Assembly (NCBI GenBank): GCA_944387425.1
Contig: CALXEV010000002.1
Coordinates: forward strand, 13,673-77,672
Direction of reading: 5' to 3'
From: an uncultured Clostridia bacterium
GTDB taxonomy: Bacteria > Bacillota > Clostridia > TANB77 > CAG-508
Length of the DNA: 64,000 bases
Position 1 is the first letter of the stretch, and each line of letters begins with the position of its first letter. Below are positions 5,267 to 48,718 of this stretch, piece after piece. Under the pieces are notes generated by a model. That model did not search any database and had not been told where the DNA came from. It saw only the letters and a list, made by a program, of their open reading frames with translations. The position numbers were made by a program, and so were the translations under genes.

Positions 5267-5303
5267 ATGGAAGTGTAGAATATACTGAAAAAGGGTGAAA
5301 AGG

Positions 5304-8300: not shown

Positions 8301-11300
8301 TTAACAGCTATAACATTATCAACCAAAATACTATCAAAATATGATGTACAAGTTAGCATAAAAGATATTTTAACAAAATACAAAATAAAAGATATATCTG
8401 ATTATATTTCTGAAAACAAATCTAAAGGTAATGAAAAAATAAAAATCAAAAAAGCTCCTATACAAGAATTATATCCTTTATCAACAGCACAGAAAAGAAT
8501 CTATTATAATTCTAAAATGATAGGAGAAGAAAATATAGTTTATAATTTATCAGGAGCTATATTAGTTGAAGATATATTAGATAAAAATAAAGTAAAGGAA
8601 ATATTTGAAAAAATAATAGAAAGACATGAAATACTTAGAACATCATTTGTAGTAAAAGAAGGTGAATTGTTCCAAAAAGTAGAAGACAAATTTGATTTTG
8701 AAATACCAATATATAATGATAAGAATGAAGATATTCAAGAAATAGTTGACAATTTTTCTAAACCATTTAATTTAGAAAAAGCTCCATTAATACGAGTAGA
8801 GCTACATTACATAGATAATGCAAAAACATTATTATTGTTAGAAACTCATCATATTGTAATGGATGGAACAGGACTAAATAATTTAATAATTGAATTCAAT
8901 AGATTATATAATGGAGCAAACTTAAAGAAGATACCTATACAATATAAGGATTATGCTGTTTGGGAAAATGAGTATATTAAAAGTAAAAATATAGAAAAAT
9001 ATGAACAATATTGGCTAAATAAATTTAAAGATATTGAATTATCACAGCTAAATTTACCTTATGATTATAAATTGCCAACAAATAGAAGTTATAAAGGTGC
9101 TAAAGTTAGTAATATGATGCAAGAGGCAGACTTCATGAAAATAGAGAGATATGCTAAAAAGATAGGTGTATCACCATATATGTTCTTTATAACTACATTT
9201 TTAATTCTACTATATAAATATACTGGACAAAATGACATTACAATAGGTAGTCCAATTGCAAATAGAAATATAAATGAAACCAAAAGAATGATAGGTATGT
9301 TTGGAAATAATATAGTTGTAAGAGGAAAAATAAATTCAGATAGCACTTTCATCGACTTTCTAAATGAAATAAAAAATCAAATATTAGATGACTTATCAAA
9401 CCAACCATATCCGTTTGATATGTTAGTAAAAAAATTGAATATAAAAAATAATAGTTCTAATAATCCACTATTTGATATAATGTTCACATATCAGAACAAA
9501 GAAGAAAATATAATAGAAATAGGCGAGAAACATAGTCAAATAATAGAACTTGACAATAATATATCAAAATTTAATTTATCTATAGAAGTAAAACCTAAAA
9601 CTCATACAATTAACATAGAATATTGTACTGACTTATTCAAGGAAGATACAATAAAAAGATTGTTTATACATTATATGAACACAATTAAGAGTGTTGTAGA
9701 AGATAAAGAGATAAAAATAAAAGATATTAGCATAATTTCACAAGAAGAAAAAAATAAAATACTATATGAATTTAATAATACAAAAACAGAATATCCTAGA
9801 GACAAAACAGTAGCTCAACTATTTGAAGAACAAGCTCAAAAAACTCCAGATAATATAGCAGTTGTTTTTGATGACAAAAAGCTAACATATAGAGAATTAA
9901 ATGAGAAAGCAAATCAGTTAGCTGATTATATACTAAAACAAGATATACATAGTGGTGATGTAATTCCATTATTATTAGATAAGTCATTAGAATCTATAGT
10001 TGCAATAATAGCAATATTGAAGATTGGATGTGCTTATTTGCCAATAGATATAGGATATCCAAAAGAAAGAATAGAATATATTTTAAAAGATTCAAAAGCA
10101 AAGATTTTATTAACATCAAGAAATTTGAACTTAGAAACAAGATTACTTATAAAAACAATATATATTGACTTAGATACAGAAAATATATATTCTTCAAGTG
10201 CAAAACAAAACATTAATTATAAAGGAAATACTTCAGATTTAGCTTATATAATGTACACATCAGGCTCAACAGGAAAACCAAAAGGAGTTATGATAGAAAA
10301 TAAAAATATAGTAAGACTTGTTAAAAATACTAATTATATAGAATTTAAGAAAGATGATAAGATTTTACAAACAGGTTCAATTGTTTTTGATGCATGTACA
10401 TTTGAAATATGGGGAGCATTATTAAATGGATTAGAATTATATATAATCAAAAAAGAGGAATTATTAGATGCTGAAAAACTACATACTTATATAATAAAAA
10501 ATAAAATAAGTGTTTTATGGCTAACAGCACCATTATTCAATCAATTAACTGAAGATAATCCACATATGTTTAGAACAGTAAGATGTGCATTAACAGGAGG
10601 AGATGTCTTATCATGTAAACATATAAATATGGTAAAATCAGCTAATCCTAAACTAATTTTAATAAATGGATATGGACCAACAGAAAATACAACATTTTCT
10701 TGTTGCTTTAAAATTGATAAACAATATAAAAATTCAATACCAATCGGAAAACCAATTGCAAACTCAACATGTTATATAATGTCTAAAGATGAGAAATTGC
10801 AACCTATAGGTATTCCGGGAGAACTATGGGTTGGTGGAGATGGAGTTGGTAGAGGTTACCTAAATAATCCAGACCTAACAAAAGAAAAATTTATAGACAA
10901 TCCTTTTAATGATGGAAAGGCATATAAAACAGGAGATTTAGCAAAATGGAATGAAGATGGTACTGTAGAATTTATGGGTAGAATTGATAGTCAAATAAAA
11001 ATAAGAGGTTTCAGAGTAGAATTAAGTGAAATAACTACAGTTGTTTCTTTATATTATGGTATTAAAGAAGCATATACTATATATAAAGATATAAAAAATG
11101 AAAAGGCAATATGTACATATATCGTTTCTAAAGAAAAGATTGATACTGAAAAATTAAAAACATATATGGCAAAATTTTTACCACAATACATGATACCTAA
11201 ATATATTATTCAACTAAAAAGTTTACCTAAAAATCAAAATGGAAAAATTGATAAAAATGCATTGCCAGAAATAAAACAAAGTGTAAAAAATGAAAAAACA

Positions 11301-31146: not shown

Positions 31147-31404
31147 TATAATATAAAATCCTATGAAAAAGCAAAGTAGATATATTTATAAAGTATCACA
31201 GAGAAAATGACATAGCTGAGAGTCATTTATACAAAATATATTGAAAATTCACTTTGGAGGACTTACCTTGAAAATAGTAGAGGTAAGCGGTTGAACCGTT
31301 AAAACTACAATGAGGTTAATAATGCTAATATAAATGTTAGCTATTAATAAAATTAGGTGGTAACACGTTTAAATTCGTCCTATATGAATAGGGCGAATTT
31401 TTTT
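31147..31404 (+). promoter_or_regulatory. T-box riboswitch leader, Phe-specific
   Basis: AGAGA- and GNUGAGAG-type Stem I elements are present (cacagagaaaatg, gctgagagtc). The specifier is UUC (31248-31250), followed by A. The T-box sequence is aaattaggtggtaacacg (31349-31366). The terminator is aattcgtcct/agggcgaatt (31372-31399) plus a T-run. Confidence 0.88.
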
Positions 31405-34930: not shown

Positions 34931-34931
34931 A

Positions 34932-34972
34932 AAATAAAGTGTGGAAAAATTTAACTCCACACTTTATTTTTT
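34932..34972 (+). terminator. Terminator of pheST
   Basis: A 14-bp stem, aaataaagtgtgga (34932-34945) pairing with tccacactttattt (34956-34969), followed by a T-run. Confidence 0.85.
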
Positions 34973-35050
34973 GACTAAAAACGCCTTGAAAGTCAACATA
35001 CACAAAGGACTCAAAAAACAACAAAATGAGATAAAAAAATACAAAAAAGT

Positions 35051-35079
35051 TTGCAATAAAACTTGCATTATGTTATAAA
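35051..35079 (+). promoter_or_regulatory. Promoter of the adhesin gene
   Basis: TTGCAA (35051-35056), a 17-nt spacer and TATAAA (35074-35079), with an extended -10 TG. Confidence 0.5.
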
Positions 35080-35149
35080 TATAATAGGAAAACTAGATGA
35101 TAAAATAATAAACTTAAAATTTTCGGAAGATGAAAGAAAAGAGGTTCTT

Positions 35150-35635
35150 ATGAAAAAAAGAATTGCTATAATATCTGTTATATTTCTGGTTTTAGCATAT
35201 ATAATATTTAATGCTATAAGTTATGCTAATGCCACACTAACAGTACACTTAGAAACTGCAGATACGAGTAATGTTGGCTATGGAATAGGAAATCCATTAC
35301 AACAGGGAATTAATATTTGGGATTTACGAAATACTGCAAACAAGAAAAATTTATATTGTATTAGGGCAGATTACTCAGATACATGGAATAATGATGGAAG
35401 AACAACTGATGTAAATTATAATTTATCATATGACTTGCAAAATGATAGAGAAAAAATATTAAATTATTTAACAGACAATGGAAATGATGGAGATGAATTA
35501 TTAAAACAATTATTAAATCCATCAGGAAATGCATATAGACAATTATTGTGGTTATTTGATAATGCATATCTAGAAGAGGAAGATGCTGAAACATATTTAA
35601 ATAATCTAGGTCTATATGATTCAAAGACATTATAG
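35150..35635 (+). pseudogene. N-terminal fragment of the thioester-domain adhesin (signal peptide plus the Cys-bearing half of the TED)
   Basis: The fragment starts MKKRIAIISVIFLVLAYIIFNAISYANA (signal peptide; RBS aagagg) and contains the NLYCIRAD Cys motif. It ends at TAG 35633-35635, while the downstream frame is already open from 35620. Confidence 0.75.
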
Positions 35636-35943
35636 CAGTACAGAAAGCAGCAGTTTGGTATTTTACAAACTATAGAGTAGGTAACAATGGCTCATATAAT
35701 AGAAAAGGGAGTTCATCATCTTGGTTATATTTAACTACAGATGGAGGCTCAAGTTTTAGAGCAATATCAGATATTGGCGTATCAGGTCAAGATAGAAGCT
35801 ATGAAGCACAATTACTTTATGATTATTTAGTTACACAGGCAGAAGAACAAGCTGGAAAATATACTGCATCAAACAATTATAATCTAAACACAAAACCTGC
35901 AAGTGTAGATACAAGTGGATTAACTGAACAAAATGGAAAATAT

Positions 35944-38900
35944 GTGGTAAATGCAGAAATAAGCTCAGATTATGATTATAATATAGTAGGACCAATTGTA
36001 ATAGATAAAAATAGCACATCTGATTATAGTATTTCTATGACAGTTACAAATCAAAGCGGAACAACAATTCATTCATCAAATTATAGTTTTGTAGATAAAA
36101 ATGGCAATTCTTTAGGAAGTGTAACATTAAAAGATTTAGTAGGTAGAAGCGGAGGATTTTATGTAAAAGTTGCTAGGAATTTAGCTACTACCGTAAATAT
36201 AAAAATAGAAATAACAAGTAATGTAACAAAGAAAACTTTATGGCTAAAAGGTACAGAATCATCAAATCAAATAAAATTAAGTGGAACAGGTGAAGCAGAA
36301 CAACCAATTGTAGAAATATCAGAAGCTCCTGAAACTGAAACAGTGGAATTAACTGGAACACCTGAAACAATAAATATACCTGTAACAAAATCATGGTCAG
36401 ATAGTAATAATCAAGATGGTTTAAGGTCAACTTCAGTAACGGTAACATTATATGCAAATAATGTAGCAGTAAATGGAAAAACACTAACATTAAATTCATC
36501 AAATAGCTGGAAAGGAACATTTACAGATTTACCAAAATACAAAAATGGAATAGAAATAACATACACAGTAAAGGAGAATAATCCGCCAACAGGATATACG
36601 CCAACAGTAAGTGGTTCAATAACAAATGGATTTACAGTAACAAATACACATACTCCAGAAACAATAGAAATTCCAGTAACAAAAATATGGGCAGATAATA
36701 ATAACCAAGATGGAATAAGACCACTTTCAGTAACAGTAGCTCTTTATGCAGATAATGTTGCAGTAAGTGGAAAAACATTAACTCTAAATAGTTCAAATGG
36801 ATGGAAAGGAACATTTACAGATTTACCTAAAAATAAGGATGGAAGAGAAATTGTTTATACAGTTAGAGAAAACAATCCACCAACAGGATATACGCCAACA
36901 GTAAATGGTTCAATATCAAGTGGATTTACAGTAACAAATACACATACACCTGAAACCATAAATATACCAGTAGAAAAAATATGGGAAGATAACAATAATC
37001 AAGATAGAATAAGACCAGCTTCAGTAATAGTGACATTATATGCAGATAATGAAGCAGTAGGTGGAAAATCGTTAACATTAACTTCTTCAAACAGTTGGAG
37101 AGGAACGTTTACAAATTTACCAAAATATAAAGATGGAGAAATAATAAAGTATACAGTTAAAGAAGAGATTGTGCCTTCAGAATATGAAGTTTCTGTAGAT
37201 GGCACAATAGAAGAAGGATTTACAGTAACAAATACGCATATACCAGAGACAATAGATATACCAGTAACAAAAGAATGGGTAGATAATAATAATCAAGATG
37301 GAATAAGACCAAATTCAATAACAGTAAAATTATATGCAGATGATATAGTTGTTGAAGGAAAAATATTAACATTAAATGCATCAAATGGATGGAGAGGAAC
37401 ATTTACAGATTTACCTAAATATAAAAACGGAAATGAAATAAAATATACAGTAAAAGAAGATACTGAACTATCAGGATATATACCAACAATAGATGGCTCT
37501 ATGGCAGATGGATTTATAATAACTAATACACATGCTCCAGAAACAATAGAAATTCCAGTAACAAAAGTGTGGTCAGATAGTGAAAATCAAGATGGAATAA
37601 GACCAACTTCAGTAATTGTAGCATTATATGCAGATGGAGTTGCAGTAAGTGGAAAAACAATAACTTTAAATAGCTCAAATGGTTGGAAAGGAACATTTAC
37701 AGACTTACCAAAATATAAAAATGGAAATAAAATAAAATATACAGTAAAAGAAGATGAACCACCAATAGGATATACACCATCAGTAAGCGGTTCAGCAGAA
37801 GAAGGATTTATAGTAACAAATACACATACTTCAGAAAATGTAGATATTCCGGTAGAAAAAGCATGGGTAGATAGTGAAAATCAAGATGGAATAAGACCAA
37901 CTTCAGTAATTGTAGCATTATATGCAGATGGAGTTGCAGTAAGTGGAAAAACAATAACTTTAAATAGCTCAAATGGTTGGAAAGGAACATTTACAGACTT
38001 ACCAAAATATAAAAATGGAAATAAAATAAAATATACAGTAAAAGAAGATGAACCACCAATAGGATATACACCATCAGTAAGCGGTTCAGTAGAAGAAGGA
38101 TTTACAGTAACAAATACACATGTACCAGATACAATAGAAATACCAGTAACAAAAACATGGTCAGATAATGGAGATCAAGATGGGATAAGACCAACTTCAG
38201 TAACAGTAACATTATATGCAAATGATGTAGCTGTAGAAGGAAAAACAATAACTTTAAATACAGAAAATCAATGGAAAGGAACATTTGCGGATTTACCCAA
38301 ATATCAAGATGGAAAAGAAATAGTTTATACAGTAAAAGAGGACAATCCACAAGAAGGATATACAGTAGAAATAACTGGTACAATTGAAGAAGGATTTACA
38401 GTAACAAATACGCATAAACCTGAAACTATAAGTATTCCGGTAGAGAAAGTATGGGTAGATAATGAAAATCAAGATGGAATAAGACCACCAGAAATAACAG
38501 TAACATTATATGCAAATGATATGGCTGTAGAAGGAAAAACAATAACATTAAATGCAGAAAATGAATGGAAAGGAACATTTGCGGATTTACCTAAATATGA
38601 AAGTGGAGAAGAAATAAAATATACAATAAAGGAAAATGATGTTTTATCAGGATATAAAGTAGCAATTGGTGGAACAGTAACAGATGGATTTACAATAACA
38701 AATACACATGAGACAGATGAAACTTCAATTACAGTAACAAAAGTATGGGAAGATAATAATAATCAAGATGGAATAAGACCACCAGAAATAACAGCAACAT
38801 TATATGCAAATGAAAAACCTAAGGAAACAATAACACTATCTGAAGGAAAATGGACACATACTTTTACTGGATTACCTGTAATGGAAAATGGAACCAAAAT

Positions 38901-41865
38901 AAACTATACAATTGATGAAACAGAAGTGCCAGAAGAATATGAAAAAGTAATTACAGGAGATGCAACTGTAGGGTTTATAATAACAAACAAATATACACCA
39001 GGAGAAACATCAGTAACTGTAAATAAAGCATGGGTAGACGAAAATGACAAAGATGAACTTAGACCAGATTCAGTAGAAATAGCATTATTAGCAAATGGAG
39101 ATGAAATACAGACAGCGACATTAACTGGAGATGATTGGACACATACATTCACAGGATTACCATTAAAAAAAGATGGTGTAGAAATAGAATATACAGTAGT
39201 TGAAAAAACACGAGTACCTGGATATACATCAAGTGTTACAGAAAACTCAAATAATAATTTTACAATAACTAATACACACAAAGTAGAAAAAATATTTGAC
39301 TTGGCATTAAGAAAATACATAACAAAAATAAACAATAATACATTAGAGAGTTTAAGTATACCAACAAGAATACCAAATATAGATACAAGTAGATTAAACC
39401 CAAGAGCAGATGCTGCAACAACTACAGCAACATATAAACACAAAAAGGATCCAGTATTAGTAGCAGAAGGAGATATTGTAACATATGAGATAACTATATA
39501 TAATGAAGGAGAAAAATCAGGATATGCAAGTCAAATAATAGATCAATTACCAACAGGTCTAATATATTCTCCAAGTACCACAGTATCTTCAAAAGATCCA
39601 GAAGGAAATAATAAGAATACATACAATGTGACATATGATCCAACAGAAAATAAAGTAATATTTGACATAGTAAATACTCCTGAAAATCCAGCAAAAGATT
39701 TACAACCATTTGAAACAAAACTAGATTATGAAACACTAGAAATAAAATGTAAAGTTGTATTAAAACCACAAATGGGAGAAACAAATATATTAACAAATGT
39801 AGCATGGATAAGTGGGGCATATGACACAGAAGATGATGAAGTAGCAGTAGATAGAGATTCTGAGCCAGAAAATCATCCAGATGTAAACAAAGACAACATG
39901 GAAGATTATAAAGGAAATGAAAACAACAAAGATGATTTAACAGATAAAGACTATCACTATGAAGGTGAGCAAGATGATGACGACTTTGAGAAACTATATG
40001 TTCAAATCTTTGACTTATCATTAAGAAAATTTATAGTAAAAATAAATGATGATGAATATATTAGCAAAAAAGGAGATTATATTAGAGAGCCAATAGTAGA
40101 TGTAAGCCCATTAGTAAATAAAACAGATACAACATCAATATATAATCATCCCAAAGAACCTGTAGGAGTAAAAGTTGGAGATAGAGTAACATATGTAATA
40201 AGAGTATATAACGAAGGTGAATTAGACGGATTTGCAAGTGAAGTAAAAGATTATTTGCCACCATATCTAACATTTATAGAAGATAGTGAAATAAATGAAC
40301 AATATGGATGGACAGTATCAGAAGATGGAAGAGTAGTAACAACAACATATTTAACAGATAAAGAAATAAGCAAATTCAATGGAACAGAACTTGATTATGA
40401 AGACTTACAAATAGAATGTCTAGTATCAGAAGAAGCACCAGTACATGAAAACTTGACAAACATAGCAGAAATATCAGAATATAAATATGGAGACACAATA
40501 GTACCAGAAGACATAGATTCAACGGCAGATAATATAGATGAAAACTTACCAGGAGATGAAGATTTACCAGGATATAAAGATGATGAAATAGGTCAAGACT
40601 ATGTACCAGGAAACGAAGATGATGACGACTTTGAAAAAATATATGTAAAACAATTTGATTTAGCATTAAGAAAATTCATAACACAAGTACAAGATCAAAA
40701 CATAACAAACAGAGAACCACAAGTAAAATATGAAAATGGACAAATAAGTTATGAACATACAAAAGAACCATTAACAGTACATGTAGGAGATGTAGTAACA
40801 TACACATTAAGAATATACAATGAGGGAGAAGTAGACGGATATGCAAGTGAAATAAGTGATGATATTCCTGAATTTTTGGAATTCTTACCAGAAAATGAAA
40901 CAAACATTAATTATATGTGGAAAATGTATGATGAGAATGGGCAAGAAACAGATAATGTAGAAGAAGCAAAAACAGTAAAAACAACATATCTAGCAAGAGA
41001 AAATAATAAAGATGGAGCAGAAACAAACTTGCTTGTTGCATTTAATGGAACAACACTACATTACAAAGATATAAAAATAGCATTTAGAGTAAAAGACCCA
41101 AATTCAAACACATATATAATAACAAACCATGCACAAATCTCAGAAGATACAGATGAAGACGGAAAACCAGTAGATGATATAGACTCAACACCAGACGAAT
41201 GGAATGAAGGAGAAGATGATCAAGATATTGAAAATGTAAAAGTAGAATATTTTGATTTATCACTACTAAAATTTGTATCAAAAGTAATAGTAATAGAAGA
41301 TGGAAAAGAAACAGTAACAGAAACAGGATATAATGGACATGAAGATCCAGAACCAGTTGTAAAAGTAGAATTACATAGAAATAGTCTAAATGATGTAATA
41401 GTAAAATTCGGATATGGAATAACAATAACAAATGAAGGAGACATCCCAGGATACGCAACAGAAATCACAGACTATGTACCAGAAGGATTAAGATTCGAAG
41501 CAGCAGACAACCCATTATGGACAGACGAAGGAAATAATGTAATATCAACAAAACAACTAGAAAACACACTATTACAACCAGGAGAAAGTGCAACAATAGA
41601 AGTAATATTAACATGGATAAATAGTGAAGATAACTTAAATGAAAAAACAAATACAGCAGAGATATCAGAAGATGATAATCCATATGATGTACCAGATAGA
41701 GACTCAGTACCAGATAATGAAATACCAGGAGAAGACGATATAGATATAGCAAAAGTAATATTATTAGTATCAACAGGTACACCAAAAACATATTTCATCT
41801 TAACATTAGGACTATTAACAATAGTATTAGTTGGAGTAATCTTAATTAAGAAATTTGTTCTATAG
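35944..41865 (+). CDS. Giant cell-surface adhesin: the Gln half of the thioester domain, 10 CnaB-type repeats, 4 DUF11-like repeats and a C-terminal TM anchor
   Basis: The reading frame is open from 35620 and there encodes IAVQKAAVWYFTN, a TQxA(I/V)W-like thioester Gln motif. Ten units of about 97 aa follow (PETIxIPVxKxWxDxxNQDGIRP...TFTDLPKY...YTVKE...GFTVTNTH). Four units of about 215 aa then start FDL(A/S)LRKF and carry GDxVTYxIxIYNEGE...DxLP. The tail is VSTGTPKTYFILTLGLLTIVLVGVILIKKFVL. Confidence 0.9.
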   Translation: MVNAEISSDYDYNIVGPIVIDKNSTSDYSISMTVTNQSGTTIHSSNYSFVDKNGNSLGSVTLKDLVGRSGGFYVKVARNLATTVNIKIEITSNVTKKTLWLKGTESSNQIKLSGTGEAEQPIVEISEAPETETVELTGTPETINIPVTKSWSDSNNQDGLRSTSVTVTLYANNVAVNGKTLTLNSSNSWKGTFTDLPKYKNGIEITYTVKENNPPTGYTPTVSGSITNGFTVTNTHTPETIEIPVTKIWADNNNQDGIRPLSVTVALYADNVAVSGKTLTLNSSNGWKGTFTDLPKNKDGREIVYTVRENNPPTGYTPTVNGSISSGFTVTNTHTPETINIPVEKIWEDNNNQDRIRPASVIVTLYADNEAVGGKSLTLTSSNSWRGTFTNLPKYKDGEIIKYTVKEEIVPSEYEVSVDGTIEEGFTVTNTHIPETIDIPVTKEWVDNNNQDGIRPNSITVKLYADDIVVEGKILTLNASNGWRGTFTDLPKYKNGNEIKYTVKEDTELSGYIPTIDGSMADGFIITNTHAPETIEIPVTKVWSDSENQDGIRPTSVIVALYADGVAVSGKTITLNSSNGWKGTFTDLPKYKNGNKIKYTVKEDEPPIGYTPSVSGSAEEGFIVTNTHTSENVDIPVEKAWVDSENQDGIRPTSVIVALYADGVAVSGKTITLNSSNGWKGTFTDLPKYKNGNKIKYTVKEDEPPIGYTPSVSGSVEEGFTVTNTHVPDTIEIPVTKTWSDNGDQDGIRPTSVTVTLYANDVAVEGKTITLNTENQWKGTFADLPKYQDGKEIVYTVKEDNPQEGYTVEITGTIEEGFTVTNTHKPETISIPVEKVWVDNENQDGIRPPEITVTLYANDMAVEGKTITLNAENEWKGTFADLPKYESGEEIKYTIKENDVLSGYKVAIGGTVTDGFTITNTHETDETSITVTKVWEDNNNQDGIRPPEITATLYANEKPKETITLSEGKWTHTFTGLPVMENGTKINYTIDETEVPEEYEKVITGDATVGFIITNKYTPGETSVTVNKAWVDENDKDELRPDSVEIALLANGDEIQTATLTGDDWTHTFTGLPLKKDGVEIEYTVVEKTRVPGYTSSVTENSNNNFTITNTHKVEKIFDLALRKYITKINNNTLESLSIPTRIPNIDTSRLNPRADAATTTATYKHKKDPVLVAEGDIVTYEITIYNEGEKSGYASQIIDQLPTGLIYSPSTTVSSKDPEGNNKNTYNVTYDPTENKVIFDIVNTPENPAKDLQPFETKLDYETLEIKCKVVLKPQMGETNILTNVAWISGAYDTEDDEVAVDRDSEPENHPDVNKDNMEDYKGNENNKDDLTDKDYHYEGEQDDDDFEKLYVQIFDLSLRKFIVKINDDEYISKKGDYIREPIVDVSPLVNKTDTTSIYNHPKEPVGVKVGDRVTYVIRVYNEGELDGFASEVKDYLPPYLTFIEDSEINEQYGWTVSEDGRVVTTTYLTDKEISKFNGTELDYEDLQIECLVSEEAPVHENLTNIAEISEYKYGDTIVPEDIDSTADNIDENLPGDEDLPGYKDDEIGQDYVPGNEDDDDFEKIYVKQFDLALRKFITQVQDQNITNREPQVKYENGQISYEHTKEPLTVHVGDVVTYTLRIYNEGEVDGYASEISDDIPEFLEFLPENETNINYMWKMYDENGQETDNVEEAKTVKTTYLARENNKDGAETNLLVAFNGTTLHYKDIKIAFRVKDPNSNTYIITNHAQISEDTDEDGKPVDDIDSTPDEWNEGEDDQDIENVKVEYFDLSLLKFVSKVIVIEDGKETVTETGYNGHEDPEPVVKVELHRNSLNDVIVKFGYGITITNEGDIPGYATEITDYVPEGLRFEAADNPLWTDEGNNVISTKQLENTLLQPGESATIEVILTWINSEDNLNEKTNTAEISEDDNPYDVPDRDSVPDNEIPGEDDIDIAKVILLVSTGTPKTYFILTLGLLTIVLVGVILIKKFVL
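36358..39290 (+). repeat. Tandem coding repeat array of 10 CnaB-type units with a period of about 291-294 nt
   Basis: Repeated PETI(E/N)IPV(T/E)K...TNTH blocks. Units 5 and 6 are identical over 220 nt (37576-37795 matches 37870-38089). Confidence 0.9.
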
Positions 41866-41877
41866 AAAATAAAGAAT

Positions 41878-41914
41878 TTGTCAAGAGGGGCGGTCCTTCT
41901 TGACAAATTTTTTT
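41878..41914 (+). terminator. Module-1 repeat copy acting as the adhesin terminator
   Basis: ttgtcaagaggggcggtccttcttgacaa (41878-41906) has perfect 8-bp outer arms and is followed by attttttt. Confidence 0.8.
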
Positions 41915-41941
41915 GACAAATTATGTTAAGCATGATATAAT
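41913..41941 (+). promoter_or_regulatory. Consensus sigma-A promoter with extended -10 for the 42004-45804 gene pair
   Basis: TTGACA (41913-41918), a 17-nt spacer ending in TGa, and TATAAT (41936-41941). Confidence 0.7.
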
Positions 41942-42003
41942 ATGGAATATTAAAAGAGAGGGGAAAATTTTGCACAAATAGCAAAATTAGAAAAGTGGTT
42001 TAG

Positions 42004-43278
42004 ATGGATGAAAGAAGATTAAGAAGTAGTATATTAGTCAAAAAATATGAAGACAAAGATGGAGTAAAAAAAGTCTTACGAAATAAATATGGTACAGTTA
42101 ATAATGCTATACAAATGTTTGAAAATGGTGAAATTACAGAGTTTGAAATAGAAAATTTATTAGAAAAAATGATAGATGTTGTTATTTCATCTAAAGACTT
42201 AACGAGAAGAGAAATTGCAAGATATTTAATGATATATCATGCACTTATTGATGGTGGATTTTATAATGATGTTGGACATAAATATCAATATGATACTAAC
42301 CAAGAAAGATTTGTAAATATAGACGAATTACAAAGAAGAATAAACGAATTAAAACCAATTGCAAAAAGTGTAATAGAACTTAGATATGGAATATCATCTG
42401 GGAAATTAAACACTCAACCTGAAACTAAGGAAGCATTAGGCCTTTCAACAGCATCAGTATCTGTAATAGAAAATGAAGCTTTAAAAAAATTACGTTTTAG
42501 TTTACCCAAAGGAATTGTTGAAGATGCTTATAGTGAAGATATAATGTATGAACTAGAAGAATTAATAAAACAACCTGATGATTATTTTGTGGAATATAGT
42601 GAGCCAGATAAGTCATTTTATAAAATGTATCCAATTTGGGATTTGAATCTATGTATAGGTACATATAATGCATTAAAAAGAGCTAATGTAAATAATTTGG
42701 CAGATTTATCAACAATGAGTGAAGAAGAATTAATGCAAATTAAAATGATAGGAAAATTAAAGATAAAAGAAATTAGAGAAAAGCTAACTTTATATGGGTT
42801 AGATATTAGATATGGTACTGAACAAGTTGAATCAAATAGCACAAGTAGAATTAAAAGGATTAGTTCAGAAAAAATTCAAAAAATAAGAAAATCTGCAAAA
42901 AGAAAATTACAATTGATGGAAGCTTATGGAAGAGGAAAGGAAGAATGTCTCGATATTACAGAAATGTTTGACCCTGAGTCAGTAATACCTGCAACAATTC
43001 ATGAACTAGAAGATTTACAACCAGAAGAATATGAACTTGCAATAAGGTATATAGAATATAGAAAACAATTAGAGCTAGGCGATACTGAGGTAGGAGATGA
43101 GACTTCATTAGGTCCTCAGACATCAAAGCTAGAAACATTTATAAAAGCAAAGAAATCTAAAAAGCAAAGAGTTGATGAATTAAAAGAATTAATAAAAGCT
43201 CAAGATGCCAAGATTGAAGCTTTAACACAATTATTAATAGAAAATGGAATAAAAATACCAAAAGAATTACAAAAATAA
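42004..43278 (+). CDS. Chimeric protein with a sigma-70 region-4-like HTH, an RNA polymerase alpha C-terminal-domain-like HhH domain and a coiled-coil tail
   Basis: SVIELRYGISSGKLNTQPETKEALGLSTASVSVIENEALKKLR matches the region 4.2 pattern (xRxGLxxxxxxTxxExxxxxGxSxxxVxxIExxALxKLR). IWDLNLCIGTYNALKRANVNNLADLSTMSEEELMQIKMIGKLKIKEIREKLTLYGL aligns with alpha-CTD (LDLSVRSYNCLKRAGI...L...EEL..I.N.GKKSL.EI...L...GL). Confidence 0.7.
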   Translation: MDERRLRSSILVKKYEDKDGVKKVLRNKYGTVNNAIQMFENGEITEFEIENLLEKMIDVVISSKDLTRREIARYLMIYHALIDGGFYNDVGHKYQYDTNQERFVNIDELQRRINELKPIAKSVIELRYGISSGKLNTQPETKEALGLSTASVSVIENEALKKLRFSLPKGIVEDAYSEDIMYELEELIKQPDDYFVEYSEPDKSFYKMYPIWDLNLCIGTYNALKRANVNNLADLSTMSEEELMQIKMIGKLKIKEIREKLTLYGLDIRYGTEQVESNSTSRIKRISSEKIQKIRKSAKRKLQLMEAYGRGKEECLDITEMFDPESVIPATIHELEDLQPEEYELAIRYIEYRKQLELGDTEVGDETSLGPQTSKLETFIKAKKSKKQRVDELKELIKAQDAKIEALTQLLIENGIKIPKELQK

Positions 43279-43302
43279 TATAAGAAATATAAGGGGGTTC
43301 AA

Positions 43303-45804
43303 ATGATTAGTAAATTTTATTTAGATAAAGAAAAAGATATAATTGTTAATTTGAAAAAAACTAACCAAGATGAAATTACATATGTGTTAGAAACACCAAA
43401 TCATAATACAGGAAACTTAATTACAAATCTAGCAAAATTATGCGGACTTAAAACAATAAAAAACGAAAATGATATGAAAATAATAACAGGAAAAATTCCT
43501 GCAAGTATAAATGGTGACAATGAAGAAGTATATATATTTAGATTAGGTGGAATAAAAATAGCAAATATTTATGAAGATAGAGTAGAAATAAAAGCAAAAA
43601 TTCCAGCCATAAATAAAACACTTATGTCTCAAACTAAAAATTATAAACTCCCAATAGAAAAAACAATTGTAAAAACATATATTTTAAAAAAATCAAAATT
43701 TAGAACAGACTTACATACCCATATGAATGCAAATTTATCTCCTGATTGTCTGATTGCATTAGGAATTTCAGAACAAGTAAGATATCCATTATATTATATT
43801 AAAAAATTAAATCTTAAATTAAGTTCAAAACAAGAAAAAAATATATATGAACAACGAAAAAATGTTGAAAAACAATTTGAAAATAGTCCATTACAAGGCA
43901 AATATTTAACAAGAAAAATAGATGATAATACTTTTATAAACTTTGCAGACTTCATATTAAATAATATAGAAAATGCACAATATAATATAGAAAAAATAAG
44001 AACAAGTTTAGCAATATTAAAAGATGGACAAGCAGTTTTTACTAATCTTGAAAAATGCTATATTTACAGATATGTATTTGCAAAAGGAATTCCTTCAACA
44101 GAAAAAATAGAACTAACAGAAGAATTAATAAAAACTATTCCAGAAGCAGACATTGTAAAAATGGTATTAAAAATGCAAGATGACAAAAAAGAAGGTAGTC
44201 CATATAAAAACAATACTTTAAGACAGAACAAACTATTGTGGGTTGCAAGAGAATATAAAAAGCAAGGAATAAAATATGTAGAAATTGCAGATACAGATTT
44301 AGCAAAATTAGGAGAACCAGCAGTAAAATTATTACAAGAAGTTCATGATATTTTTCCACAGATAGAAAAAGAAACAGGAGTAAAAATTAGATTTTTATTA
44401 GCAATAAGAAGAATTCCGTTAACAATTATAAAAGACCAAAAAACAAGTAGTACATATTTAAAAGACAATATAAATGTTTTAAAAGCAGTTGCCAAAAGTC
44501 CATATGTTGTAGGTAGTGATTTTATTGGAGAAGAAATCAACGATATTTCAGACTTACAACCAGTAATTCAAAAAATTGTAAAATATGTAAATCAAGAAGA
44601 TAAAGACTTCACAATAAGAATTCACGCAGGAGAAAATGACAGTTTAAGAGATAATGTAAGAAAATCAATTATGTGTGTGAAAGAAGCACTTGTAGATGGA
44701 CAACCAATGCCTAGATGTAGAATAGGACATGGATTATATTCAGAAAACTTAAACAGTGAAGAAGGAAAAGAATTATTAGACTTAATGAAAGAAACTGGTG
44801 TTGTAATTGAATTTCAATTAACATCAAATGTAAGATTAAATAATATTAGTGATTTATCAAATCATCCAATCAAGACATTTTTGAAAAATGGAATTAAATG
44901 TGTACAAGGAACAGATGGTTGTGGATTTTATGGTTCAGATACATTTGATGAACAATTAGCACTTCAAAATTTACTAGGTTTAACAAATAATGATTTTGAA
45001 AAAATGAGAAAAGTAGAAGATGAGATAATTGCTCATAGTGAAAATTTTTTTTTAGAAAAAAGCAAAAAGTTTGAACAATTTTTGAATGGAAGAAGCATAA
45101 AAGAAGCAATACTTGAATTAGAAGAGAAAAATATAAAAGAAACTGAAGGTCAAGAAGAATTAAGAATAACAAATAATATAGAAACAGAAAAAGAATTAAG
45201 CCAAAAAATTAAGCCATTACCAACAGATAAAGTTCCAGTAATAATTGCAGGTGGAAGCTTTAATACAAAAGGAAGAGAAACTGTTGTATCTGAAAATGGA
45301 ATTAAAATATTAAGACAATTAATAAAAAATGTTGATAGTGAAAACGCGTACTTTGTAATAGGTCATAAAATGCAAGGATATGAAAAGGCAATTGTAGACA
45401 TTTCAAAAGAGATGAATAAGAATTTTGAAATAGATGCAATAGTTCCAAAAGTAGTTACTCAAAAAGTAAAAAATAGGTTATTAGATGAAGAAGTAGATGG
45501 AATTTGTATTTCACTTGAAACAGAAGAATTAGGAATTTATAAAAGTTTTAATTATGAAATTTTTGAAAGAAGAAAATCAGTTGTAATTGCTTTCGATGGA
45601 AATTCCCCTGTTCTAAATCTTGTGCAAGAAGCCAAAAATGGAAAAGGAAAATCAAAAATATATGTAAATAAAGAAAATACATTATTACGAGAAAAGGCTG
45701 ATACACTTGAGGGATATGTTGTTCCTTTTGAAATGCAAGATAATCAAGATAATATAGTTAGCAAAATATTTGAGGATAATCCAGAAATTTTAAAACATAA
45801 TTAA
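43303..45804 (+). CDS. Large adenosine/AMP-deaminase-fold protein with an N-terminal extension and a C-terminal LOG/SLOG-like Rossmann domain
   Basis: The RBS is aaggggg. All metal and catalytic motifs are present: DLHTHMN (HxH, about 43710), IRIHAGEN (HAGE, about 44622), RIGHGLY, and QGTDGCGFYG (about 44911). The C-terminal roughly 190 aa read PVIIAGGSF...FVIGHKMQGYEKA...AIVPK...ERRKSVVIAFDGNSPVLNLVQEA. Confidence 0.75.
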   Translation: MISKFYLDKEKDIIVNLKKTNQDEITYVLETPNHNTGNLITNLAKLCGLKTIKNENDMKIITGKIPASINGDNEEVYIFRLGGIKIANIYEDRVEIKAKIPAINKTLMSQTKNYKLPIEKTIVKTYILKKSKFRTDLHTHMNANLSPDCLIALGISEQVRYPLYYIKKLNLKLSSKQEKNIYEQRKNVEKQFENSPLQGKYLTRKIDDNTFINFADFILNNIENAQYNIEKIRTSLAILKDGQAVFTNLEKCYIYRYVFAKGIPSTEKIELTEELIKTIPEADIVKMVLKMQDDKKEGSPYKNNTLRQNKLLWVAREYKKQGIKYVEIADTDLAKLGEPAVKLLQEVHDIFPQIEKETGVKIRFLLAIRRIPLTIIKDQKTSSTYLKDNINVLKAVAKSPYVVGSDFIGEEINDISDLQPVIQKIVKYVNQEDKDFTIRIHAGENDSLRDNVRKSIMCVKEALVDGQPMPRCRIGHGLYSENLNSEEGKELLDLMKETGVVIEFQLTSNVRLNNISDLSNHPIKTFLKNGIKCVQGTDGCGFYGSDTFDEQLALQNLLGLTNNDFEKMRKVEDEIIAHSENFFLEKSKKFEQFLNGRSIKEAILELEEKNIKETEGQEELRITNNIETEKELSQKIKPLPTDKVPVIIAGGSFNTKGRETVVSENGIKILRQLIKNVDSENAYFVIGHKMQGYEKAIVDISKEMNKNFEIDAIVPKVVTQKVKNRLLDEEVDGICISLETEELGIYKSFNYEIFERRKSVVIAFDGNSPVLNLVQEAKNGKGKSKIYVNKENTLLREKADTLEGYVVPFEMQDNQDNIVSKIFEDNPEILKHN

Positions 45805-45850
45805 ACTAAAAAATTAACAAATTTACTCAAAACACTTGACAAATGTGAAA

Positions 45851-45890
45851 AAAAGGTGTAAAGTATATTGGCATTACACCTTTTGTTGTT
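45851..45890 (+). terminator. Terminator after the deaminase gene
   Basis: An 11-bp stem, aaaaggtgtaa (45851-45861) pairing with ttacacctttt (45874-45884), followed by a T-rich tail. Confidence 0.7.
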
Positions 45891-45937
45891 TATAATAACG
45901 AAAATAAGTAATGCAACTAAAGAAAGAGGTAGTAATT

Positions 45938-46285
45938 ATGGAAAAGAAAGTAGAAATAAGTATGTTATGGCAAATTTATGGAAAGCTATTAACAGAAAAA
46001 CAGTATGAGTACATTGATTATTACTATAATGAAGACTTATCTTTATCAGAAATTGCAGAAAATGAAGGCATTACAAGACAAGCTGTAAGAGACATCATCA
46101 AGAAAGGAGAGAGAAAACTTTTCGAATACGAAGAAAAGCTATTGTTTATGAGAAAGACAATTAATCAAGAAAAACAAATACAACATATTTTACTTAATTT
46201 AAACAAAATTCAAAAAGACTCATCAGATAAACAAGTAACAAATATATTGGAAGAAGTTAAAAAAGAATTAAATTGTTTAGTCTAA
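45938..46285 (+). CDS. ylxM: YlxM/UPF0122 putative HTH protein of the SRP operon
   Basis: LLTEKQYEYIDYYYNEDLSLSEIAENEGITRQAVRDIIKKGERKL is typical of YlxM. The gene lies immediately upstream of ffh. ATG 45938 follows the RBS agaggt. Confidence 0.88.
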   Translation: MEKKVEISMLWQIYGKLLTEKQYEYIDYYYNEDLSLSEIAENEGITRQAVRDIIKKGERKLFEYEEKLLFMRKTINQEKQIQHILLNLNKIQKDSSDKQVTNILEEVKKELNCLV

Positions 46286-46305
46286 ACAAAAGATAGGAGG
46301 CAAGT

Positions 46306-47658
46306 ATGGCGTTTGAAGGATTATCATCAAGACTACAAGAAATAACAAGAAAAATCAGAGGAAAAGCAAGAATAACAGAATCAGATTTAAAAGAAATGCT
46401 AAGAGAAGTTAAACTTGCTTTGCTTGAAGCTGATGTAAACTATAAAATAGTTAAAGAATTTATAGCAAATATACAAGAAAAAGCCTTGGGTCAAGATGTA
46501 ATGAAATCATTAACACCAGGACAACAAGTCATAAAAATCGTAAAGGACGAAATGGTAGAATTACTAGGAGGAACTGAAAGTAAAATAAACTTTACTCCAA
46601 ATCCACCAACAATAATAATGTTAGTTGGATTACAAGGTTCTGGAAAAACAACTACAGCAGGAAAACTTGCTAATCTTTTACGAAAACAAGGTAAAAAGCC
46701 ATTACTAGTAGCATGTGATATATATAGACCAGCTGCTATAAAACAATTACAAGTAGTAGGAGCTCAGTTAAATATACCAGTATATGCTAATGAAACATCA
46801 AAAGATGTTGTGCATATTGCAAAACAAGCAATGAATGTTGCAATATCAAAATTAAATGATGTAGTAATACTAGATACAGCAGGAAGATTACACATTGATG
46901 ATGAATTAATGCAAGAACTAAAAAATGTAAAAGCAAGTGTAAAACCACATGAAATTTTGTTGGTAGTAGACTCAATGACTGGTCAAGATGCAGTAAATGT
47001 TGCACAAACTTTCAATGATGAAGTAGGAATTGATGGAGTAATATTAACAAAATTGGATGGAGATACACGTGGTGGTGCAGCACTTTCAGTAAAGAAAGTC
47101 ACTGGAAAACCAATAAAATTTGCAGCAACAGGTGAAAAGTTAAGCGATATTGAAGTATTTAATCCAGAAAGAATGACATCTAGAATACTTGGAATGGGTG
47201 ATGTGTTATCAATAATCGAAAAAGCCGAAGAAGCAATCACAGAGGAAGAAGCAGAAAAATTAGAAAAACAACTTAGAAAAAATGAATTAGACTTAGATGA
47301 TTATTTAGCACAAATCAGACAAGTAAAAAAGATGGGTTCACTATCATCAATATTAAAAATGTTACCAGGAATGAACAAAATAAAAGACTTAAATGTAGAT
47401 GAAAAAGAATTTGATAAAATTGAAGCAATTATTTGTTCAATGACTGTAGAAGAAAAAAGAAATACAAAATTATTAAATGGTAGTAGAAGATTACGTATTG
47501 CAAAAGGTAGTGGAACTACAGTTCAAGATGTTAACAAATTTATGAAATCATTTGAAATGACACAAAAAATGATGAAACAAATGAAATCAAATAAAGGTGG
47601 CATGAAAAACATGTTCAAAAACATGAACATGAATGATTTGAAAAATTTTAAGATGTAG
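46306..47658 (+). CDS. ffh: Signal recognition particle protein Ffh
   Basis: NG domain motifs are present (GLQGSGKTTTAGKLA, DTAGR, TKLDGDTRGGAALS), with a Met-rich M domain at the C-terminus. Confidence 0.96.
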   Translation: MAFEGLSSRLQEITRKIRGKARITESDLKEMLREVKLALLEADVNYKIVKEFIANIQEKALGQDVMKSLTPGQQVIKIVKDEMVELLGGTESKINFTPNPPTIIMLVGLQGSGKTTTAGKLANLLRKQGKKPLLVACDIYRPAAIKQLQVVGAQLNIPVYANETSKDVVHIAKQAMNVAISKLNDVVILDTAGRLHIDDELMQELKNVKASVKPHEILLVVDSMTGQDAVNVAQTFNDEVGIDGVILTKLDGDTRGGAALSVKKVTGKPIKFAATGEKLSDIEVFNPERMTSRILGMGDVLSIIEKAEEAITEEEAEKLEKQLRKNELDLDDYLAQIRQVKKMGSLSSILKMLPGMNKIKDLNVDEKEFDKIEAIICSMTVEEKRNTKLLNGSRRLRIAKGSGTTVQDVNKFMKSFEMTQKMMKQMKSNKGGMKNMFKNMNMNDLKNFKM

Positions 47659-47705
47659 TTATTAATTTTTTAAACTTATATAGAATAAAACGGAGGTGAA
47701 TTGTA

Positions 47706-47936
47706 ATGGTAAAAATAAGATTACAAAGAGAGGGAAAGAAAAAAGCTCCATTCTATCATATAGTAGTAGCTGATTCAAGATCTCCAAGAGATGGAAAAAT
47801 AATAGAACAAATTGGAACATATGATCCAATGACAGAACCATCAACAATAGTTCTAAACAAAGAAAAATTAGAACAATGGATAAAAAATGGTGCACAACCT
47901 ACAGATACAGTTAAAGCATTAATCAAAAATGCTTAG
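47706..47936 (+). CDS. rpsP: 30S ribosomal protein S16
   Basis: The N-terminus [31 protein letters not shown] is present and the gene sits in the conserved operon position. Confidence 0.95.
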
Positions 47937-47948
47937 TTGGAGGAAAAT

Positions 47949-48182
47949 ATGAAAGAGGTTTTAGAAACTATTATTAAAAACTTAGTCGACACTCCAGAAG
48001 CTGTTGATATAAAAGAAGTTGAAGGAGAAAAAAACATAATCTTTGAAGTAAAAGTTGCTGAAAAAGATTTTGGAAAAATAATTGGTAGACAAGGAAAAAT
48101 TGCACAATCTATAAGAACAGTAATGAAATCCGTTGCAAATAGAAAAGACAAAAAAGTTACTGTAGAATTTATAGAACAATAA
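47949..48182 (+). CDS. KH-domain RNA-binding protein (YlqC family)
   Basis: The KH GxxG motif is present (IIGRQGKIAQSIRTV) and the gene lies between rpsP and rimM. ATG 47949 follows the RBS ggagg. Confidence 0.88.
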   Translation: MKEVLETIIKNLVDTPEAVDIKEVEGEKNIIFEVKVAEKDFGKIIGRQGKIAQSIRTVMKSVANRKDKKVTVEFIEQ

Positions 48183-48211
48183 AAGTTATACCATGAAAGG
48201 AATGGTAGAAC

Positions 48212-48718
48212 ATGCAAAAAAGGCTAGAAGTTGGTCAAATTGTTAATACATTTGGTATAAAAGGAGAAGTTAAAGTAATGCCTTTTACAGATGATATAAC
48301 AAGATTTGACGACCTAGAAAAAGTATATGTTAAAACTAAAAAAGAAGAAAAACTATATAAAATTCAAAATGTGAGATATCACAAAAATATGGTATTAATC
48401 AAATTTGAAAATATAGAAACACCAGAACAAGCTGAATTGCTAAGAAATGCTTTTCTAGAAATAGACAGAGAAGATGCAATACCACTAGAAGAAGGAACAT
48501 ATTATATAGCTGATTTAATTGGTATGGAAGTATATTCAGATGATGGAAATAAGCTAGGAATAGTAGAAGACATCTATAATACTGGAGCAAATGACATATA
48601 TGTAGTAAAAAATGATTTAGGAAAACAAATTTTATTACCAGGAATCAAAGAGGTAATAAAAGAAGTTAACTTAGATACAGAAAAAATTACAGTACATCTT
48701 ATACCTGGATTGATTTAA
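48212..48718 (+). CDS. rimM: 16S rRNA processing protein RimM
   Basis: The N-terminal VGQIVNTFGIKGEVKV and a PRC-barrel C-terminus are present, in the conserved operon position. Confidence 0.92.
   Translation: MQKRLEVGQIVNTFGIKGEVKVMPFTDDITRFDDLEKVYVKTKKEEKLYKIQNVRYHKNMVLIKFENIETPEQAELLRNAFLEIDREDAIPLEEGTYYIADLIGMEVYSDDGNKLGIVEDIYNTGANDIYVVKNDLGKQILLPGIKEVIKEVNLDTEKITVHLIPGLI

Follow-up and report, generated by a model that had tools for sequence, protein, structure and literature searches.

The 64,000-nucleotide stretch analyzed here (the window; positions 13,673 to 77,672 of contig CALXEV010000002.1, assembly GCA_944387425.1, an uncultured Clostridia bacterium) is ordinary chromosome that carries, immediately upstream of an adenosine-deaminase-domain gene, an open reading frame (ORF) in which Pfam recognizes Sigma70_r4 and then RNA_pol_A_CTD in one polypeptide. 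We refer to it as the sigma4/alpha-CTD gene, after sigma-70 region 4 and the C-terminal domain (CTD) of the RNA polymerase alpha subunit. The evidence supports well that this gene is chromosomal, lineage-restricted and fast-evolving in a low-GC gut Firmicute, and that its product is a short, helicase-less member of an uncharacterized protein family. Residue comparisons show the window lineage to be an outlier of that family, with a lineage-specific loss of the canonical DNA contacts in both domains.

The original prediction had read both a region 4 and an alpha-CTD in this protein, and both calls are borne out by profile search, structure prediction and structural comparison. Sigma70_r4 (PF04545) matches residues 113-164 with E=2.8e-7 (30.4 bits, gathering cut-off 24.1), and RNA_pol_A_CTD (PF03118) matches residues 207-262 with E=5e-13 (49 bits, gathering cut-off 23.8). 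AlphaFold2 models both domains with a predicted local distance difference test (pLDDT) score of ~85-90, dropping to low values at residues 168-174 and 198-203 of the linker that joins them. In Foldseek, the region 4 model superposes on Thermus aquaticus 1rio_H with a template-modeling (TM) score of 0.88 and a root-mean-square deviation (rmsd) of 1.2 Å, and the alpha-CTD model on 1z3e_B and 1lb2_E with a TM score of 0.89 and an rmsd of 0.9-1.4 Å. Regions 4.1 and 4.2 align without gaps to the sigA region 4 of PDB entries, keeping the LRYG and ALKKLR motifs, while the alpha-CTD is 32-34% identical to that of Bacillus subtilis.

The region 4 helix-turn-helix of the sigma-70 family and the alpha-CTD fold of RpoA are thus both present in an architecture built from known modules, but the protein belongs to neither family, the defining features of which fail. 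Neither Sigma70_r2 nor Sigma70_r3 has a Pfam match at E<=1, and without regions 2 and 3 the protein cannot be a sigma factor; similarly, RNA_pol_A_bac and RNA_pol_L, the alpha N-terminal dimerization and assembly domain, have no Pfam match, and without this domain it cannot be an RNA polymerase subunit. NCBIfam sigma models reach 17-37 bits against cut-offs of 190-550, aligned mainly through their region-4 ends, and the rpoA equivalogs reach 31-47 bits against cut-offs of 228-523, aligned only over model positions 212-339 (their C-terminal ends). With scores so far under the whole-protein cut-offs, the protein is no alpha subunit and no sigma factor. Reading the N-terminal part as sigma region 3 was also rejected: only weak NCBIfam alignments point to it, and the family profile meets PDB sigmas over region 4 alone.

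A fusion or assembly artifact, which the original prediction named as a possible undoing of its reading, was rejected, as the ORF turns up on numerous independent contigs and again in three lineages that have diverged. The 90% identity cluster of the 424-residue protein has 80 members; among 15 listed members, which occur on up to 30 contigs each, most are 424 residues long and two are fragments of 104 and 217 residues. The orthologues P0002 (87% identity) and P0003 (78% identity; P-numbers are labels of the family set) equal the window protein in length, with no indels. Nei-Gojobori estimates from orthologue pairs give nonsynonymous to synonymous ratios (dN/dS) of 0.22-0.33 overall, ~0.25 within each of the two domains, and a minimum of 0.16 over the last 79 residues (346-424). 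Judged by these ratios, the gene is under purifying selection. Its base composition shows no deviation.

That no characterized protein combines these two domains, as first proposed, holds in that neither the combination nor any family member is described in the literature searched, but the protein is not a one-off chimera and belongs to a recurrent family. When 1.84 billion cluster representatives (50% identity) were searched exhaustively, 1346 matched at E<=1e-3, mostly via the alpha-CTD. Both domains, as a region-4-like segment plus one to three alpha-CTD-like segments, occur in at least 33 of the best 149 representatives, and Pfam finds both in 42-45 of 46 selected members, with a superfamily 2 (SF2) helicase in 6 of the 46. 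Members share, in order, an N-terminal module (N-module), a region 4 resembling that of sigA, between one and four copies of the alpha-CTD, and finally a coiled-coil tail. Two features define the family, namely one or more alpha-CTDs C-terminal to region 4 within a single polypeptide and a conserved N-module upstream of region 4, and the window protein has both. The architecture is already visible in precomputed Pfam annotations, and a profile scan of genome contigs matched mostly rpoA. Against the PDB, the family profile matches primary-sigma (sigA) region 4 at E=7.6e-27, with only positions 99-166 aligned; the N-module has neither a Pfam nor a PDB match. This module of ~80 residues, directly upstream of region 4, is common to ~25 members by jackhmmer on the family set, with E-values down to 8.5e-29 outside the window protein's own orthologues.

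Family members vary chiefly in what is added to this core. P0019 and P0061 are distant homologues over the full length, having an F-x-P...IP motif and a terminal zipper (LIENGI.IP) in common with the window protein plus an extra N-terminal HA domain. The long relatives P0018, P0025, P0029, P0071, P0088 and P0137 (~940-1260 residues; one locus is L034, 5316-8132) are laid out as an SF2 helicase (ResIII/DEAD and Helicase_C), HA, N-module, region 4 and one to three alpha-CTDs, although Pfam calls the HA domain in only one of them (P0088). By Pfam, the window protein does not have this N-terminal extension of helicase and HA. One further member contains a HARE-HTH domain, the fold of the N-terminal domain of the RNA polymerase delta subunit. 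Distant members adjoin cell-wall synthesis (Mur-ligase/FtsW) genes, ftsZ, glmS/uvrC and pyk/cotJB. Among those examined, no deaminase, defense or mobile-element gene is a conserved neighbor, and the neighbors of 133, 191 and 197 residues, compared in a check for conserved neighbor genes, resemble neither one another nor any window ORF. In L024 (7386-9253; an uncultured Eubacteriales metagenome-assembled genome) a stop codon between region 4 and the alpha-CTD breaks the family member into ORFs of 391 and 176 residues, and a DUF4258-like and zinc-finger antitoxin-like gene pair, identified by eye, lies downstream.

In sigma-70, region 4 reads the -35 hexamer through R584, E585, R586, R588 and Q589, while R265 of the alpha-CTD reads the minor groove of the A/T-rich UP element. 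Relatives largely keep these residues: R265 is conserved in 269 of 330 alpha-CTD copies, and R586 and Q589 in 22 and 24, respectively, of 32 region-4 copies. In the window protein, ungapped alignment places LSTASVSVIE opposite the sigA recognition helix VTRERIRQIE, such that STASVSV, which has no basic residue, replaces TRERIRQ and the five -35 residues (E. coli numbering) become T/A/S/S/V. The original prediction had noted by hand alignment that R265 is replaced by Gly, and the ungapped alignment of B. subtilis LSVRSYNCLKR with LCIGTYNALKR bears this out (G219). Furthermore, NLGRKSL stands opposite MIGKLKI, placing Leu (L252) at K298 and Lys (K253) at S299. The 265 determinant (R265/N268/G296/K298/S299) therefore reads G/N/G/L/K and fails as a whole, although the equivalents of N268, G296 and B. 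subtilis Y263 and K267 are conserved. The -35-contact loss in region 4 is a second loss, not noted in the original prediction, beyond the one at R265. In a per-protein residue table, both DNA-contact sets are missing only in the window protein and P0001-P0003.

The altered positions also drift among the three orthologues. Their recognition helices read STASVSV, STSSVSV and SVSFVST, while IENEALKKLR, directly after the helix, is invariant; in the alpha-CTD, positions 265 (G, G and S) and 297-298 vary. The C-terminus, originally called charged and coiled-coil-like, is indeed charged and helical: 39% of residues 285-424 are charged, and AlphaFold2 predicts helices at 288-313, 340-357 and 372-413. 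Its motif F322-x-P324...I328-P329 is conserved, and the terminal helix (372-413) has the ending LIENGIKIP.

Table 1. Features of the sigma4/alpha-CTD gene, its surroundings and the rest of the window.
Feature	Position in window	Strand	Basis or remark
Sigma-region-4/alpha-CTD ORF	42004..43278	+	Intact, 424 aa
N-module, ~aa 8-90	42025..42273	+	jackhmmer on family set, family alignment
Sigma-70 region 4-like domain, aa 106-166 (Pfam 113-164)	42319..42501	+	Pfam, Foldseek, alignment
Acidic linker, aa 167-205, net charge -9	42502..42618	+	Charge count
Alpha-CTD-like helix-hairpin-helix domain, aa 207-269	42622..42810	+	Pfam, alignment, Foldseek
Charged helical C-terminal region, aa 273-424	42820..43275	+	Alignment, AlphaFold2 helices, charge count
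Adenosine-deaminase-domain gene, 833 aa, 25 nt past the sigma4/alpha-CTD stop	43303..45804	+	ORF, Pfam
Variable slot, pheT to deaminase gene	34931..43300	+	blastn vs L005/L006, gene tables, Pfam
Terminator-like hairpin (TTTGTCAAGA ... TCTTGACAAA) then T-run, end of adhesin gene	41879..41919	+	Read from sequence
Sigma-A-type promoter, TTGACA, 17 nt, TG-extended TATAAT, 12/12 consensus matches	41913..41941	+	Promoter scan
T-box leader, upstream of pheS-pheT	31154-31385		Rfam RF00230, 114.5 bits
Two-module non-ribosomal peptide synthetase (NRPS), 2499 aa, reductase domain at end	5295-12794		
Tyrosine-recombinase (Phage_integrase) gene beside histidine kinase + response-regulator-HD pair	15929-16873		
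Large surface adhesin gene	35063-41865		Frameshift apparent at ~35633-35635

On good evidence, the slot that the gene occupies is hypervariable; it is bounded by pheT on one side and by the conserved deaminase-ylxM-ffh block on the other. In the related loci L005 and L006 (~83% nucleotide identity) the window gene order is kept, with homology ending at the pheT stop (34930) and returning at the deaminase start (43301-43303). The slot of the window genome holds the frameshifted Cna_B adhesin gene and the sigma4/alpha-CTD gene, that of L005 (2460-8000) a mechanosensitive channel gene with AAA_5 and DUF2201_N genes, and that of L006 (6627-7998) two small ORFs of 83 and 197 residues; tblastn finds no trace of the sigma4/alpha-CTD gene in L005 or L006. 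In L001, which carries the 78% orthologue, homology to the window begins at 41908, just past the hairpin, and the surface protein upstream is a different one (Laminin_G_3). Between the window and L001, dS/dN is 0.05/0.001 for ffh, 0.20/0.018 for the deaminase gene and 0.38/0.112 for the sigma4/alpha-CTD gene. Nucleotide identity over 41908-48522 runs from 98-100% in ffh and rpsP through ~91-96% in the deaminase gene to ~82-87% in the sigma4/alpha-CTD gene, with ~76% past 47900; such mosaic divergence between two strains or species suggests recombination.

The transcription unit is bounded upstream by the terminator-like hairpin, although the consensus scan did not list it as a terminator, and the promoter that follows is identical in three diverged lineages (window, L038 and L001). 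A direct repeat, TTGACAAAT, occurs twice with 13 bp spacing at 41900-41921, its first copy being the 3' arm of the upstream hairpin and its second the -35 element of the gene's own promoter. The ATG at 42004 has a weak Shine-Dalgarno-like sequence. Further upstream in the 5' untranslated region (41956-41981), a strong Shine-Dalgarno-like GAGAGGGG is followed after 6 nt by a mini-ORF, TTG-CAC-AAA-TAG, which is six codons long in L001 and L038 because the TAG reads CAG there; it may be a leader peptide or chance.

The deaminase gene has a Pfam match only to A_deaminase (residues 314-570), leaving ~300 N-terminal and ~260 C-terminal residues without one. The SLOG label first attached to it was not confirmed, as Pfam finds no SLOG domain and a PDB sequence search of the C-terminus was empty; nor does the literature searched hold an adenosine-deaminase/SLOG pairing that matches the locus. 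The gene has more than 5000 homologues and is a fixed neighbor of ylxM-ffh in related genomes. In L001 it carries a 1-nt frameshift after codon 44.

Elsewhere, the window runs from a P-type ATPase through HtrA, the NRPS with its terminal reductase, a histidine kinase and response regulator, an integrase-family gene, Tex and PFL to aspS, the T-box leader with pheST, the variable slot, the deaminase gene, ylxM-ffh-rpsP-KH-rimM-trmD-rplS, LonC and OGG. Genes for the polymerase parts themselves (rpoA, rpoB and sigA) are absent from it. A similar NRPS and HtrA occur in a related organism (L010), which also has a paralogous family member (P0276). The 5' part of the split adhesin gene is a 190-residue ORF with a signal peptide and a "YCIRAD" Cys, whereas the 3' part, in another frame, is open for 2076 codons from "AVQKAAVWYFTN" and encodes 10 Cna_B repeats, DUF11 and a C-terminal membrane anchor. 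Its Cys and Gln motifs may resemble those of a thioester domain. The split could reflect a pseudogene, phase variation or a sequencing error.

We favor, with a probability of about 0.4, a reading of the window protein as a fast-evolving, probably dimeric paralogue of RNA polymerase modules that works through protein contacts and not through canonical promoter DNA binding. Typical members of the family retain, in both domains, the residues for reading upstream promoter DNA and would probably dock on promoter-like DNA. The window copy appears to have abandoned canonical DNA reading, which we propose because the contacts are gone from both domains and variable in orthologues while the folds, the ALKKLR helix and the tail are constrained. 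It may instead be a dimeric adaptor or decoy between proteins, which would offer sigma-region-4-like and alpha-CTD-like surfaces to partners of the polymerase modules. Among such partners could be the beta-flap, regulators of the Spx type or others that bind alpha-CTD or region 4, and anti-sigma-like factors. It would not be a dedicated regulator of the deaminase next door. The original suggestion of a decoy or adaptor thereby gains some support from the absence of DNA contacts in both domains whose folds are under selection, while its mechanism is something we infer.

Several observations weigh against this reading. No member of the family has a known binding partner, DNA target or phenotype, and the loss of canonical contacts would also be compatible with a new mode of DNA binding; both domains keep a slight positive net charge (+2 to +3 for region 4, +1 for the alpha-CTD). 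The short heptad zipper in the tail is a pattern seen by eye, and the AlphaFold2 model as a whole is moderate (mean pLDDT 66.5, predicted TM score 0.43, from a 12-sequence alignment). The dN of the gene, six times that of the deaminase gene, could mean relaxed constraint and a function being lost. Finally, the 25-nt gap to the deaminase gene makes co-transcription probable in the window lineage, through which a lineage-specific functional link could yet exist.

Alternatively, the protein may be a DNA-binding regulator or nucleoid-associated protein that docks on promoter-like DNA through the region 4 helix-turn-helix and the alpha-CTD helix-hairpin-helix with altered or relaxed specificity, repressing by promoter occlusion or regulating nearby surface-protein genes. 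This is unlikely, though worth serious consideration: both folds bind DNA and are slightly positive in charge, the residues for -35 reading and R265 persist in most of the family, a large adhesin gene lies directly upstream in the three contigs with a resolved upstream gene (L001, L003 and L004), and the TTGACAAAT repeat sits at the gene's own promoter. However, a recognition helix without a basic residue and Gly/Leu in place of R265/K298 tell against such docking, and the drift of the contact positions among orthologues is unexpected for a surface that determines specificity. Moreover, the upstream adhesin changes between lineages while the sigma4/alpha-CTD gene stays.

We consider it improbable that the protein descends from a DNA-binding family member and is now decaying, with transcription kept and function largely or entirely gone. 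In favor of decay, key residues are gone in both domains, dN is six-fold above that of the neighboring deaminase gene, and the gene, whose neighbor in the hypervariable slot is the frameshifted adhesin gene, is missing from sister genomes. The ORF is nevertheless full-length at 424 residues in most listed cluster members and free of indels in three lineages, its dN/dS stays at 0.22-0.33 over the whole gene and is 0.16 in the tail, and its consensus promoter is conserved.

The original prediction also offered the protein as a sensing or regulatory partner of the downstream deaminase, a two-gene system to which the 25-nt gap, the one strong upstream promoter and the adjacency of the pair in all three lineages carrying the sigma4/alpha-CTD gene lend some appeal. 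We rejected this role on synteny and consider it quite improbable. The deaminase gene stands at 84-87% identity in the same place (pheT ... deaminase-ylxM-ffh) without the sigma4/alpha-CTD gene, as in L005 and L006 and also in L007, while distant sigma4/alpha-CTD homologues lie elsewhere without a deaminase neighbor, such that co-occurrence of the pair, proposed at the outset as a check, is not conserved across lineages. The two proteins also evolve at very different rates (78% versus 96% identity for the deaminase, in one genome pair), and neither has a PADLOC match. A part in a defense system was rejected for the same want of a PADLOC match and of a conserved defense-island neighborhood, the neighborhoods being housekeeping ones.

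A host-takeover factor acquired from a phage or mobile element, hijacking RNA polymerase and now chromosomal, would fit the fast evolution, the variable slot and the small phage proteins annotated as alpha-subunit C-terminal domain (BFVD; Goe8 gp005), but it is highly improbable and a phage or plasmid origin was rejected, since tblastn against phages and plasmids gave isolated alpha-CTD/rpoA matches with no full-architecture relative, IMG/VR scans found no relative, PHROGs gave a generic sigma family match only, base composition is normal, no integrase or phage gene is adjacent, and relatives lie beside ftsZ, glmS/uvrC, pyk and Mur-ligase/FtsW genes. Small proteins with a stand-alone alpha-CTD, bearing the annotation "RNA polymerase subunit alpha", do exist in phages, as Goe8 and the BFVD matches show. 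One of the phage alpha-CTD proteins, gp005 of Bacillus phage vB_BmeM-Goe8 (L041, 1959-2591; 210 residues, alpha-CTD at 147-203), lies at the left end of its genome record among short genes mostly annotated as hypothetical.

Most bacterial activators recruit RNA polymerase through two of its modules, sigma region 4 and the alpha-CTD. That a non-polymerase family holds both, sits in housekeeping contexts and in some members adds a helicase suggests a layer of control not yet described, exerted by promoter occupancy or polymerase mimicry, and we expect this family-level picture, the helicase-fused forms above all, to interest transcription specialists. More speculatively, and doubtful as it stands, the family could consist of "upstream-promoter-half mimics", in which fused -35 and UP modules, sometimes with an SF2 helicase, occupy or remodel promoters in gut Firmicutes, with the window lineage a DNA-blind decoy for the beta-flap or for factors that contact region 4 or the alpha-CTD. 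Having kept the folds and lost the DNA contacts, the window copy is a natural separation-of-function variant that could help to tell DNA docking from protein docking, and the synteny result removes a tempting link to the deaminase.

Compared with known systems, the window protein shares with the RpoA alpha-CTD the same helix-hairpin-helix fold but has no alpha N-terminal domain, carries Gly and Leu at R265 and K298, and sets the fold in another polypeptide context. With SigA/RpoD region 4 it shares the fold, LRYG and ALKKLR, but has neither region 2 nor region 3 and none of the five -35-reading residues. Its closest likeness in domain order and N-module is to the uncharacterized N-module/region 4/alpha-CTD(n) proteins of gut Clostridia and Bacilli (P0019, P0061, P0071 and P0029; L020, L026 and L034), of which P0019 and P0061 also have its C-terminal F-x-P...IP motif and terminal zipper; it differs in having a single alpha-CTD, no HA domain and no helicase, and within the family set its group alone has neither a basic recognition helix nor an equivalent of R265. 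Goe8 gp005 is likewise a non-polymerase protein with an alpha-CTD, but a phage one without region 4 (by Pfam), N-module or tail. Spx touches the alpha-CTD, whereas AsiA, Rsd and phage G1 gp67 touch region 4, and the complexes 1z3e, 3gfk, 4g6d and 4g8x are among the Foldseek matches. The surfaces that these regulators contact are of the kind that a region-4/alpha-CTD decoy could, by analogy, titrate; they differ from the window protein in that they bind the modules, whereas it copies them.

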